Source: Octopus sinensis (Eukaryota). From it: a DNA stretch of 64,000 nt. The stretch covers positions 40,052,001 to 40,116,000 of the forward strand of contig NC_043008.1 of NCBI RefSeq assembly GCF_006345805.1. The letters run 5' to 3'. Of this stretch, positions 3,175-40,380 are shown piece after piece. The notes beneath the pieces are model-generated. The model was given only the letters and a program-made list of their open reading frames with translations, did no database searches and was not told where the DNA came from. Made by a program: the position numbers and the translations under genes. How positions within the stretch are numbered: the first letter of the stretch is position 1; the number at the start of each line of letters is the position of its first letter.

Positions 3175-5915
3175 CGTAACCCAAATTAACGTCCTAGCCA
3201 GAGCCTTAAAATTCAGACCTACTCCAATAACAGCCAACCCCCCGGAGATCAAGAATAACATTTCTGAATTTTGCAGAAAACTTCGTTTAACAGAAGCTTT
3301 TACAGACTTCAGCAATGAGGATGATTCAATGGTCAAAAACAAAAGTAACTTTCTACCATCAAAAGGAAGAACTAAAGCACTGGACGATTTTTGCAACCAC
3401 ATCCAGAGTCTCCCCTTCACCCCATACAAAACCAAAGTTAAGTCCAACTTTAATAGGGATGAATGGAAAAACCTACGAGACCTACAACAGGACAAAAAAC
3501 TTAATATTAAAGAAGCCGACAAAGGTCGTACTGTGGTACTTATGGACACAGATTTTTATAAACATCTAATACTTTCCTTGCTAAACAACAACATCTTCTA
3601 TGAAATAATCACCAGCTATAAACAGCAAAAACACTTAAAAACCTCACCACCCTCATACTTCCATACGGTCAAGGTCTCACGGAAAATGAAAAGGATTATA
3701 TCATCAATTTCAAATGCACGCCCAGCCTCTTTTATGGCATTCCTAAAGTCCATAAAAACAAATCCATCACCGAAGCCTTCAAACTCTCCTCTGACATCCA
3801 CATCAACATCAAGGCACCGGAAGACCTAAGAATAAGGCCCATCATAACTGGTGCCTCATGCTGCGAAACCCACCGCTTGAGCAATTTCCTGGACATCTTT
3901 TGAAACATTTCCTTAGTCACATCAAAAGTTTCATTAGAGATGATCTTGACATGCTCAAGCACCTCCCGAAAACAACCAACGTCCTTTGATGTTATCAATC
4001 TCTATACCAAAATCCCACATGAATATGGTATTGAATCAATTGATTTCTGGTTGGAGAAACACCCAGAAGCATTTCCTAACCGCATTAACAAGACCTTCAT
4101 TACGGAATCCCTCAAGTTCATTCTGACAAACAATTATTTCCTCTTTGAAAACACACACTACAGACAAAAATGTGGTATCGCGATGGCTACGAAAGCTGCA
4201 CCATTCCTTGCGAACCTCATAATGGGTTTCCTCGAACTATCACTCTATGAGATATCACGCCAGAAATTTGGACACCTTTTCTACATCTACTTAATGGAAA
4301 ACTAGAAAAGGTACCTAGATAATTGTTTCATCATATGAAAAGAATCTTATGAAAAACTTCTGGAATTCAAAACCACACTGAACAGCATACACCCCAACAT
4401 TCAATTCACAATGGGGTTCAGCAAACATCATCTACCTTTCCTTGATCTCCTAATTCTAAAAAACACCGAACAACCAAATAACAACCGACATCTACCACAA
4501 ATCTACAGACTAACAACAATACCTCCTCTTCAGTTCAGGCCACCCAAAACTCACCAAGATAAATATCCCTTTCAACTTAGCTAAAAGGGTATGCACCATT
4601 GTCTCGAATCTCAAAACTCGAGGAATATGCCTTCAATACCTCAAAAAAAACCCCACTACTACAACGCCAATATCCCTCCTCACTCAAAAACCATGGAATG
4701 AAACGTGCCAAAGAACTAGACAATAATACCCCGAAAACCACCCAACACAGTAACACACCCAACATCAAAATACTTCCATACATTTCCACCCATAACCCCT
4801 AAAACATCGAAGCATACACCGCAATCATACAAAACCTCATCTTACTGTCCACAGACCCCAAAATGAATAATATTATCAATACATATAAAATCCTTAAATG
4901 CAAAATGCAACATAAATCTTTGAAAAGACTCATAACAAATGCCAACCGTCATACACCACATCCACCCCTATAAGTTAAAAAATGTTCACGCCCTAACTGT
5001 GGTACCTGCCACTTCCTACTTGAAGGCTCTGAATTTAGTTTCAAACGAGAAAGAAAGTTTAAAATCAAGGCCAACTTTTCCTGTTCCTCCGAGAACCTCA
5101 ACTACGTTCTCACATGCACCGGTTGCCAACACGATTATGTTGGACAAACGAGCCTTGCTTTACGCAAAATAGTAGCAGTCCATAAAGAACAGATAAATCT
5201 CCCACAATACTGTCAAATTCCACTCAGTAGCCACATAGACTCTTGCGCTAGAGATAAAAATCTCAAATTTCACATATTCCCTTTCTACCAATGTAAAGAC
5301 AGTATCTCTACAAAAGAAAGAATCAACGAGGAGAATCTTTGTATTGAAAAATTCCAAACTCGTCTTGATATGCCAACTCCACTGTGACCATACTCCTTTT
5401 TCTAGCATCCTATCTGACAAAAAATTGATATAAGCATCCTTTTTGACAATAAATCCACCATTCCAATTAAAGAGCATAACATCCACAGAATTGTCTCCCT
5501 TTACTCACAGAAACTCGATAACTTCTACCCCATTTCCTGTTTTGACACACAGTCACCCACTCTTTCAAAATACACACAACATTTAAACATATGCATCCTA
5601 ATCCTCCAAAGTAGTTTTCCAAGGACTATTATTGAACTCTATAAGCATAAAGATTCTACATGTATTGGTATACTTATTTATTAATTTCTTATATATATAT
5701 GTATTATTATTCTTTTGAAAAATCATTGTAGATTTCTTTTTCCTCTTCCTCAATTTAAAAAACAAAACTTTTCCCCTTCCAAATCCTGAAAATTTGCCTT
5801 GTAATGAAAACCGTTTTGATCTATTATTTTTTCTTTTATAATTTTTCATACATCCATTTTTTATTAAAATTTACTTTCAATTTAACATTCTCCTTTATTA
5901 TAATTTATTCTATTT
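3175..5915 (+). mobile_element. Penelope-like retroelement (Neptune-type), decayed RT + Cys linker + GIY-YIG endonuclease, plus AT-rich 3' region
   Basis: Motifs in order: LKFRPTP, KEADKGRTVVLMD, RPII, SFDVINLYTKIPH, NNYF..YRQKCGIAM..AAPFLANLIMGFLE, RYLDN (YxDD site), LPFLDL, PYISTHNP, KCSRPNCGTC, FSCSSENLNYVLTCTGCQHDYVGQT; interrupted by stops and frameshifts; (TA)n on both flanks. Confidence 0.9.
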
Positions 5916-26522: not shown

Positions 26523-27094
26523 ATATATGTGTATGTATGTATGTGTATATATATGTATGTATGTATAGAGTGTTAGAAGTAGGGAACAGATATTGAATAT
26601 TGAGAAAGAGGAGGTCGCTAGAATTTGGGAAAAAGTTTTTTATTAATTTAGTCATTATTATTAGCAGTTTCGTCCTGCTTCGAACTTGTCAAATAAATTT
26701 GTGAATGTTCCAACGGTTTGTTCATTTATATAAATCAGGTGTTTTTTGTGTTGTTTAGATGAGAACATTGTTCTTTGTTTTTTGTTTGATGTTTGGTAGT
26801 CAGTTTCTAGGACAATAGAGATAGATAGATATGCTTCTTCATTGGCCACGCAGAGCTTAACACGGAAGGGACCGAATACAAAGAAGAGCTTTTCTTTTTG
26901 GAAAGGTAAGAAAGAAAAAAGAAAAAAATAGAAAAAAAGAAGGAAAGAAGGAAATGAAAAGTGGGTCGAATTCCGACCAAAATGGATCGTGAAAAAAACA
27001 AAAAAAACAAAGATGGGGGCCCTACCAGTAGGGATCGTGTATCTCAGAAATGTCAATGTAAAAATATTAGGTTTATCTGTGGAAAGAAAAGTCT

Positions 27095-27740: not shown

Positions 27741-27784
<44 letters not shown>

Positions 27785-27823
27785 CGTTTTTCATCTAGTA
27801 CAGCATATTATGCTCATAACAAA

Positions 27824-27883
27824 CTACGCTGATGAAGCTACAGATATCCTTGTGATATTAATAGCTGAAACTGCAGTACGTAG
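27824..27883 (+). ncRNA. Type-I hammerhead ribozyme, copy 1 (predicted cleavage after GUA, position 27878)
   Basis: Stem I ctacg/cgtag; CTGATGA at 27829-27835; stem II agcta/tagct extended by atatc/gatat; GAAA at 27867-27870; stem III AC-tgca-GT (palindrome actgcagt); cleavage triplet GUA. Confidence 0.9.
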
Positions 27884-28329
27884 GTAATTATTCCATTTAG
27901 TATATTTCTTTTGTCTCATCCATTGCTTTAGGTCGTGCTGAATTTTATTTTTATTTGAGAACATAATCCTTGTGGAGAATGGCGATTTGACGTCTATATC
28001 TAGCATGTTGACAGTCCACCTTTTCGTGTTCAGTCCTTAATTGGTATATATAAATATTTTAATCTTCGGATTCTTTTTAATGTGCTAGACCACTGGTTTT
28101 AATTGACTAATATCAATTTCTACCCTTAATTTTTAAATATAAAATATATGTTCTCAAACCGATAAATTGACTGCTGCTAATTATTGGCTGCAGGCTAGTT
28201 TTTCGATTATCAGCGCGCCAAAAGTAGAGGCATTCGAAAGATACATCCGAACGTAATAGGTTGTACTTTTTGCATGCGGGACTCCGGTACCGTTTTTCAT
28301 CTAGTACAGCATATTATGCTCATAACAAA

Positions 28330-28389
28330 CTACGCTGATGAAGCTACAGATATCCTTGTGATATTAATAGCTGAAACTGCAGTACGTAG
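28330..28389 (+). ncRNA. Type-I hammerhead ribozyme, copy 2 (predicted cleavage after position 28384)
   Basis: Identical to 27824-27883, 506 nt downstream. Confidence 0.9.
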
Positions 28390-28680
28390 GTAATTATTCC
28401 ATTTAGTATATTTCTTTTGTCTCATCCATTGCTTTAGGTCGTGCTGAATTTTATTTTTATTTGAGAACATAATCCTTGTGGAGAATGGCGATTTGACGTC
28501 TATATCTAGCATGTTGACTGTCCACCTTTTCGTGTTCAGTCCTTAATTGGTATATATATATATATGTATATATATATATACCGGAGTAAACACATAAATG
28601 TTAAAAAAGGTGGAAAAAAAGAGTACTCAAATACCAGTGGTAGAGTACTATGCTTTATTTAAAGCAGCAGAACATTCTAC

Positions 28681-28727
28681 AAAACCTGTTACTCTGAGTT
28701 TCATGTTGCCGTTCATCGGACAGTTTT
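28681..28727 (-). ncRNA. Near-canonical minimal type-I hammerhead (C3-C4 core variant) in a second TA-anchored element (~28580-28735)
   Basis: Minus strand aaaactgt CCGATGA acg-gcaa-cat GAAA ctcagag TA acaggtttt: stem I ctgt/acag, short stem II with one mismatch, quasi-palindromic stem III. Confidence 0.6.
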
Positions 28728-29045: not shown

Positions 29046-29275
29046 TTAATCCCAAATTGAAAACACAGAGAGAAAACACAACAACGCGAGGACGTGGAAC
29101 AAGTATAGTGGTATTGGACGGTCAGGAAAGGAATGAAAGAAGGAGGATTTAACGCTTCGAGCGGATTTCTTCGTCAGAAACATAGAAAAAGGAAAGATCC
29201 AAGGAAGGGAAGACGGCGGAAAACATCGCCACGAGATGACAAGAATATTTCCAAGCACGTGAACTCAAAGACACA
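29046..29275 (-). mobile_element. TA-anchored short element with a decayed hammerhead (29148-29181), related to the 17.3-17.7 kb arms
   Basis: Minus strand ttt CTGACGA agaaatccgctc GAAG cgTT aaa; GAAA mutated. Confidence 0.5.
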
Positions 29276-39359: not shown

Positions 39360-40380
39360 AAACTCTTCTCAGTATTTAAGGAAGCTGACAAATACAAACA
39401 AGAAATCCTACCACCTAATAAACATGAAGAAGAAGAAGAAGATGAAGAAACAACAAAAGCTATAAAACAAATGAAATCCAAACTAAAGATAGAACAGCAA
39501 CGAAACATGATAAAACGATGGCAAGAAAAGCCCCTTCATGGTAAATACTGGACTAAACTAAACGCAAAAGAAATAGACAAAGAAAAATCCCAGCAATGGT
39601 TGAGAAGCTCAGGACTCAAAGCAGAAACAGAGGGATTTTTAATTGCAGCACAAGACCAAAGCCTCCCCACCAGAAATTACCAAAAACATGTAATGAAAAG
39701 AAATATTACAAGTAACTGCAGAATATGTGGAGATGGACAAGAAACAATAAATCATATTATCTCTAGCTGCCCAGTCCTGGCTAAGAAGGAATATATTCAC
39801 AGACATGACAGAGTTGGAACCTACATACATTGGAAGCTATGCCAACATTATGGAATAACAACAGAAAAAAGATGGTATAGGCACACACCAGAAAAGGTCA
39901 CAGAAAACGAGAAAGCAACCATACTCTGGGATATGCCGATACACACAGATAGAGAAATTAAGGCCAACAGACCAGATATAGTTGTCAGAGATCATGAAGA
40001 AAAAAAATGCTTTCTAATTGATGTATCAATACTGGCTGATGACAACGTGTCTCTAAAAGAAATGGAGAAACTCTCAAAATACAAAGACCTGGAAATAGAG
40101 GTAACTAGAATGTGGAATCTGAAAACAGAAACAATTCCTATCATAGTAGGTGCATTAGGCACGATAAAAAAATATTCAGACAAATACATAACAAAAACAC
40201 CAGGACTTACAAACACATATAACATACAGAAAATTGCACTACTAGGCACTGCACACATCCTACGCAGAACACTTTCCATACAATAACCATCAGAGCATCA
40301 CAACAAATCACAGCACATAGCCAAGGTGCACAGAGCTGCGCTCGGTAGTGAAGTAAAAGCACGCTATAAAAATAAAACTA

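Follow-up and report, generated by a model that had tools for sequence, protein, structure and literature searches.

A young hammerhead retrozyme family in Octopus sinensis with insertion junctions that point to a circular RNA copied by a Penelope-like enzyme

The 64,000-nt stretch of Octopus sinensis DNA analysed here (the window; contig NC_043008.1, positions 40,052,001 to 40,116,000) contains a non-coding element made of head-to-tail 506-bp units, each with a type-I hammerhead ribozyme motif, that lies in a (TA)n microsatellite. The element is one copy of a young, dispersed non-coding retrozyme family with several subfamilies, and we consider it probable that the enzyme of a Penelope-like element (PLE) has spread this family by copying a predicted 506-nt circular RNA into such microsatellites. 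More tentatively, we propose that the insertions record rolling-circle target-primed reverse transcription, in which a dimeric PLE enzyme would start from two mutually exclusive sites on one ribozyme-made circle and proceed for up to 16 turns. The main value of the analysis is that the junctions provide evidence of a PLE enzyme copying a circle from two mutually exclusive starts, and the mechanism can be read from the junctions because the family is both young and numerous.

Insertion ends, paired arms and the template

Matches to the unit were found in at least 189 places in the genome (40 of 1,484 candidates were scored), with full units 95-100% identical, and a 25-mer at the common 3′ end produced 1,765 exact matches against none for its reversed control. 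The copies are dispersed over many contigs. These matches, together with the empty reversed controls, establish that the element is neither a chance pattern nor an assembly echo, in line with the earlier note, which had expected a multi-copy family and had argued against an echo from the one true substitution between the direct repeats (A28013 versus T28519, ahead of the TA run). The examined set comprises 124 non-redundant loci, 53 not chosen for length (drawn from the first 100 listed matches of the 25-mer, on contig C1) and 71 selected for their unit or ribozyme matches; before counting, 11 loci that overlapped others or duplicated them as haplotigs (L009, L015-L018, L025, L026, L028-L030 and L071) were removed, and L031 was additionally left out of the haplotype and private-substitution analysis. 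Copies range from 0.2 to at least 15.7 units, most genomic copies being shorter than one unit; the longest array (L152; G000:C1:190066000-190075900) belongs to a sister subfamily and continues past the fetched stretch. The sister subfamily is about 80% identical to that of the window, and between subfamilies unit positions 175-375 are 91-94% conserved versus 57-82% elsewhere, making this domain the putative binding region for the reverse transcriptase (RT).

The 5′ ends of the copies vary through truncation, while their fixed 3′ ends fall at one of two internal TA tracts, sites A and B, about 90 nt apart, the stretch between them constituting a PLE-like tail. One-armed copies end at A or B and run into (TA)n in 40 of 41 cases. 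Most unselected loci (43 of 53) are two-armed: an inverted and a direct arm meet head to head. One arm ends at A and the other at B in 41 of these 43, in 37 of the 40 two-armed loci chosen by length or ribozyme, and in 78 of 83 overall. Same-site combinations (A+A or B+B) occurred in 1 of 83, and the pairing of A with B in 41 of 42 A/B-classified copies departs strongly from independent choice (p = 2e-11). Arm junctions mostly show an overlap of 0-3 nt. In 5 two-armed copies the B arm stops at site A, as expected if the second primer sits at A, and in 19 of 78 the arms cannot be copies of each other.

Several other schemes were rejected. The earlier note had anticipated copies that are circular permutations of one another, an expectation contradicted by the fixed 3′ ends and by the predominance of two-armed inverted copies. 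Ends placed at the ribozyme cut fail as well, the 3′ ends lying at A or B and the 5′ ends showing no pile-up at the cut. Base pairing between A and B is not predicted by RNA folding, which puts each site in its own weak hairpin, and a model of two RTs chasing each other (arm-length difference of -414 to +92) is broken by many multi-turn copies. As for an element that makes its own (TA)n, the three loci with an empty-site-like paralogue have pre-existing TA in a host repeat, and such synthesis is possible elsewhere; one of the three also shows a short target deletion. At L124:1920-2104 a 183-bp piece of another abundant repeat lies between two retrozyme arms, as a template-switch insertion or a later integration.

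In 28 of 28 two-armed loci both arms belong to one haplogroup, where permutation gives 7.9. Among 125 locus-private substitutions covered at least twice, 14 occur in all units covering the position, across both arms in 10 cases, and 4 occur in part of the units. Private changes fill up to 5 of 5 units (L062, L064 and L068), which implies passage through one monomer. Substitutions per site amount to 0.0053 within arms, 0.0052 between arms and 0.0169 between loci, the last figure including some sister-subfamily fragments. Arm starts lie within 5 nt of the cut in 4 of 156 cases (about 3.4 expected if uniform) and one-armed starts in 0 of 41, and the ribozyme cut junction is exact in 155 of 160; the template thus appears to have had no end at the cut. 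A closed circle would satisfy both the one-haplotype and the no-end data. A linear monomer is at odds with the absence of an end at the cut, and a linear multimer accounts poorly for the shared haplotype.

Proposed mechanism, candidate driver and alternatives

In order to account for these junctions on the molecular level, we hypothesise that the transcript of a two-ribozyme copy, such as that in the window, would be cut at both sites, probably aided by palindromic stem III pairing, and that the monomer would be ligated into a circle, by analogy with PMC7229834. A PLE protein with RT and GIY-YIG domains would bind the conserved domain that holds A and B and nick both strands of a (TA)n tract, whereupon the two DNA 3′ ends would prime reverse transcription on the same RNA, at A and at B, and each RT would travel anything from part of a turn to many turns. 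Joining of the two cDNAs head to head via short microhomology would create an insertion of two arms, one of which bears the tail; alternatively, extension of one end only would leave a one-armed, 5′-truncated copy like that in the window. The family data support the earlier note in its suggestion of PLE-type mobilisation and run-around on a circle, and as the 3′ ends, inverted arms and tail match PLE anatomy, the retrozyme carries the signature of a PLE enzyme. According to the accessible text of PMC11167929, a purified PLE protein, for which a dimer is predicted, both nicks and extends the two strands, and its RT starts at two internal RNA sites with the stretch between them forming the genomic tail.

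The genome contains two young PLE families with open RT and GIY-YIG frames, 28% identical to each other, for which a zinc-finger-like linker suggests the Neptune type (by the criterion of PMC8557442). The first, the AT-rich L194 family (L194-L213), has an open 782-codon frame with an RT and a weak GIY-YIG match and copies 97-99% alike; it is a young autonomous PLE (reference copy L194:3205-6630) with two-armed insertions and a 47-nt tail. In the 20 loci fetched, the family has a short end and an end 47 nt longer, both in (TA)n, and short and long ends are combined in 6 of 6 true two-armed copies having both standard ends. L200 combines the long end with an end of a third, shorter type. Excluded from this count were L204 and L207, which are long+long and form whole-locus palindromes including 0.6-1.7 kb of host flank; the palindromes are centred in the PLE copy, with host flank on both sides, and represent real fold-back duplications or assembly artefacts. 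Because its ends match the two-end, (TA)n rule of the retrozyme, the L194 family is the likeliest driver. By eye, its pseudo-long terminal repeat (pLTR) also has a motif resembling a hammerhead, in which stem III is palindromic and a U3-A8 core pair is apparent.

The second family, L085, terminates inside its pLTR, at an internal TA tract after which (TA)n follows, and 4,258 such ends occur in the genome; a second TA tract, the one site tried as a guessed tail end, had a single match, and no tail was seen there. Its young full-length copy (L085:1088-6381) has two pLTRs and about 1,000 codons from stop to stop, and its only (TA)n end is preceded, at a distance of about 105 nt, by a minimal hammerhead-like motif. 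A search of the PDB sequences with the L085 protein returned no match. At L036, the one retrozyme locus of 124 that adjoins a PLE frame, a 3-nt microhomology joins the retrozyme to 1.3 kb of RT-endonuclease sequence of the L085 family, which differs from other copies by 5-9 substitutions, and (TA)n lies on the outer side of each; Pfam assigned no family to the fragment. The fusion may reflect a template switch. PLE ends of the L097 type share the stem III octamer of the retrozyme, but they are old (80-91%).

Several observations weigh against a ribozyme-made circle copied by a PLE enzyme, and some of them favour particular alternatives. Cleavage, circular RNA, expression and partner are predictions. 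None of the 19 listed sequencing runs that contain the element is on record as RNA, and 14 are only guessed to be 'RNA?', represented by contigs; those of three such runs and one unknown run give patchy cover, mostly of the A-B region, with loose (TA)n ends like the genomic copies and no strand, end or circle information. Most private substitutions (107 of 125) sit in a single unit only, and the shared variants could have been passed on by sibling RNAs whose source locus lies outside the sample, or spread by gene conversion. The PLE fused at L036 belongs to the L085 family, which is distinct from L194 and shows one end, and the fusion may instead be an insertion with a 1-kb target deletion. 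Neither the L085 nor the L194 family, pLTRs included, shows sequence likeness to the retrozyme unit; descent from their pLTRs is not supported, and the genome holds many other PLE families. With the same retrozyme and enzyme, the template might also be an uncleaved linear multimeric transcript, the ribozyme only trimming it or acting later, and such a template would likewise give exact junctions without a 5′ pile-up. For the lizard PLE, ribozyme cleavage was dispensable and unprocessed RNA the dominant substrate in vitro (PMC11167929), in vitro cleavage failed for 8 of 9 Xenopus dimers (bioRxiv 10.64898/2026.07.22.740005), and L062 contains a mosaic pair of units. A new mutation in a multimer would enter one unit, yet the 14 private substitutions noted above fill all covering units; moreover, all ribozyme stems are kept across subfamilies, and most genomic copies, at less than one unit, are unable to template long arrays, so that we regard an uncleaved template as unlikely.

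A circle might be copied from one primer only, the second arm arising by fold-back of the single cDNA, as proposed in the form of self-priming for PLE inverted repeats (PMC3846280). This would explain why one arm could nest in the other in 59 of 78 two-armed copies and why 22 of 70 junctions are symmetric, against 4.9 by permutation, some of them at palindromes, although symmetric junctions could also result from collision. The 19 copies that cannot be nested and the B arms that stop at A speak against it, and fold-back alone would permit the same-site ends that are nearly absent; as a replacement for the second primer it seems quite improbable. Twin priming on one RNA is our preferred reading, to which fold-back may contribute, and the two may well operate side by side. 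Repeated end-to-end template jumps on a cleaved linear monomer would also impose a one-monomer bottleneck, and template switches are seen (L036 and L124), but the exact cut junctions and the absence of a 5′ pile-up there make this very unlikely. We give equally little credence to the idea that the element is what remains of the pLTR of some coding PLE, or is a DNA-level minisatellite expanded by unequal crossover, with the ribozyme as a passenger. Such a birth route has been proposed (bioRxiv 10.64898/2026.07.22.740005), the ends are fixed as in PLE fragments and PLE families abound in the genome; against this stand the spread over many contigs, the variable 5′ truncation, the inverted arms that both end at A or B in (TA)n and the lack of likeness to the two young PLE families. 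The earlier note's distinction between the element and a mere terminal fragment of a coding PLE survives despite the fixed ends, because arrays reach at least 16 units and L036 alone adjoins a PLE frame.

If correct, rolling-circle copying from two sites would explain both the spread of the retrozyme and the long-unexplained PLE structure of an inverted repeat plus one tail, the genome supplying the predicted 506-nt circle, an intact young PLE protein and the (TA)n target. PMC8557442 lists the tandem and inverted structures of PLEs and their microsatellite bias as unexplained, and the circle as a retrotransposition template and PLE mobilisation are put forward as hypotheses in PMC7229834 and bioRxiv 10.64898/2026.07.22.740005. 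By naming a candidate enzyme and a minimal RNA domain, the analysis renders these questions testable at the bench, and a 200-nt domain directing (TA)n-targeted insertion of a circular RNA would be of interest for retroelement-based gene writing.

The element in the window and its ribozyme

The earlier note had described the element as repeat-unique-repeat. Its direct repeats were recovered (27781-28057 and 28287-28563, 277 nt each at a spacing of 506 and 99% identical), but the layout is that of 1.54 head-to-tail units rather than of LTR-like (long terminal repeat-like) repeats around a unique segment (Table 1). Insertion into (TA)n is borne out by the two flanks and by the family's 3′ ends, and the absence of coding capacity by a longest overlapping ATG open reading frame (ORF) of 60 aa, on the minus strand. 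The predicted monomer folds better than all 100 shuffles (z = -4.9), and its consensus fold has double changes in 10 of 122 pairs.

Table 1. Coordinates of the retrozyme insertion and its parts in the window
Feature	Positions	Strand	Remarks
(TA)19 target microsatellite, 5′ flank	27743..27780	.	
Retrozyme insertion, one-armed, 1.54 units, 5′-truncated, 3′ end at site A	27781..28558	+	
One 506-bp repeat unit	27781..28286	+	reference for unit coordinates 1-506
Type-I hammerhead 1	27824..27883	+	predicted cut 27878/27879; palindromic stem III/loop 27870-27877
Predicted 506-nt monomer RNA or circle, between predicted cuts	27879..28384	+	fold and consensus pairs
Most conserved domain, holding sites A and B; putative RT-binding region	27955..28155	+	unit 175-375
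Site A, internal TATATATA tract, fixed 3′ end of copies	28045..28052	+	unit 265-272
Site B, second AT tract, alternative fixed 3′ end	28130..28149	+	unit about 350-369
Type-I hammerhead 2	28330..28389	+	identical to hammerhead 1 at +506; predicted cut 28384/28385
Second unit's site A, merging into the (TA)n 3′ flank	28551..28580	.	(TA)15

Hammerhead 1 consists of stem I (27824-27828/27879-27883), the core CTGATGA (27829-27835), a 5-bp stem II (27836-27840/27862-27866) surmounted by an upper 5-bp stem, GAAA and a stem III of AC-TGCA-GT, with the cleavage triplet GUA and a cut predicted after A27878. The earlier claim of twin intact type-I hammerheads 506 nt apart is upheld by the identity of the second to the first. 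The Rfam search suggested as a check was negative, the models giving no match to the element at the gathering score and no hammerhead among 31 weak matches (E up to 10), and the hammerhead call is consequently based on motif and covariation. Two 17-18-mers of the ribozyme have 105 and 66 exact matches in the genome, their reversed controls none, and exact ribozyme motifs of sister and older subfamilies 759. Between two subfamilies, stem I, stem II, the upper stem and stem III are each altered on both sides; 98% of cells are paired, with double changes in 6 of 18 pairs, against 28-46% in slid controls, although this signal is largely one split between two subfamilies counted several times, and 76 of 500 shuffles score as high by the measure of pairs with a double change. 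The preservation of every stem across subfamilies argues for selection on the ribozyme.

Stem III is palindromic in differing letters (ACTGCAGT, ACTGATCAGT, ACTAATTAGT or ACTAAATTTAGT, ACCGATCGGT; at least four variants), the palindrome of the commonest sister form being imperfect, with one unpaired central base. Its retention fits selection for pairing as a double hammerhead (PMC4209133) but, judging from the accessible text of PMC7229834, would not establish that the monomer is inactive: a 2-bp stem III with a tetraloop resembles invertebrate hammerheads described there, of which a monomeric coral copy cleaves efficiently. The earlier note had linked such a stem to hammerheads that cleave as dimers; in this family, cleavage restricted to the dimer is a possibility.

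Other hammerhead-like sequences occur nearby and elsewhere. A very abundant repeat adjoins the 3′ (TA)n at window 28581-28725 and carries a decayed hammerhead on its minus strand near 28660-28725; by eye, further decayed motifs lie near 26655-26690 and, on the minus strand, 29150-29185. About 1 Mb of fetched DNA contains at least ten additional hammerhead sequence families, the genome being rich in PLE-type ribozymes. On the minus strand near 3071 of L096 (G000:C4:76702300-76708300) lies a distinct hammerhead that has the stem III octamer in common with the retrozyme; it is accompanied by a 43-nt direct repeat whose copies are 353 nt apart, and it probably represents another retrozyme family, unrelated to the first. 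The window further contains a degenerate copy of an L194-type PLE (3188-5387) and a 308-codon frame (39360-40286) that may correspond to the C-terminal portion of a non-LTR retrotransposon encoding a restriction-like endonuclease.

Relation to known retrozymes and retroelements

By every feature testable on sequence, the element qualifies as a metazoan non-LTR retrozyme: it has a type-I hammerhead in each tandem unit, multi-copy head-to-tail units, a non-coding structured monomer and no LTR layout, and autonomous PLEs (the two young families) reside in the same genome. Its two alternative 3′ ends, inverted 5′ arm, 5′ truncation and microsatellite target are those of PLE-mobilised sequences, whereas it lacks the RT and GIY-YIG ORF of an autonomous PLE and shows no likeness, such as a pLTR fragment would have, to the two families examined. 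A plant LTR retrozyme (type-III hammerhead in LTRs, 4-bp target-site duplication) is ruled out by the type-I ribozyme, tandem units and (TA)n flanks.

Metazoan non-LTR retrozymes have been reported from coral, mussel and axolotl (PMC7229834) and from vertebrates (bioRxiv 10.64898/2026.07.22.740005), and molluscan examples are thus known from mussel; a squid genome paper gives 235 hammerhead matches, in its accessible text without context. We found no description of a cephalopod retrozyme family, of this family or of these retrozyme end rules in the open-access literature, a search that did not extend to Repbase/Dfam, where the family may be catalogued. As the earlier note had supposed, the family appears undescribed in the literature searched, its kind being known. 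It shares with published metazoan retrozymes the non-coding head-to-tail type-I hammerhead units, low GC, structured monomer and co-occurrence with PLEs, and its 506 bp fall within their reported range of 51-972 bp, although the unit is longer than the invertebrate examples (170-400 nt). It differs from those described in that most copies are two-armed inversions of less than one unit, that the 3′ ends are fixed at two sites and that the target is (TA)n, with no readable target-site duplication. The two studies infer the PLE link from co-occurrence and pLTR homology, with no such end features in the accessible part of their text; the present family has no pLTR homology and instead bears the PLE insertion signature itself.

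Endonuclease-containing (EN+) PLEs, such as those of Neptune type and PAc of Anolis (PMC11167929, PMC8557442 and PMC3846280), likewise show 5′ truncation, partial tandems, an inverted 5′ arm, a tail at one end, microsatellite bias, a type-I hammerhead and two internal RT start sites. The retrozyme differs from them in having no ORF, a tail of about 90 nt rather than 30-40, and many turns of one unit, and its start sites are TA tracts similar to the target, unlike the non-homologous sites used by PAc. Non-autonomous Chlamys elements such as MRC1 (PMC8557442) are also of PLE type with multicopy head-to-tail insertions; unlike the retrozyme, their 3′ ends resemble those of autonomous partners and most lack hammerheads.

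The junctions of this family reveal the PLE tail signature on a retrozyme, the strict pairing of A with B, the single template per locus and the lack of a stop at the cut. L1 twin priming (PMC2837659) offers a further comparison. There, two target ends prime on one RNA and generate an inverted arm joined by short microhomology. The retrozyme insertions share this type of junction, whereas in our family the two-armed form is the main outcome (43 of 53), both start sites are fixed, the arms overlap and several turns are possible.
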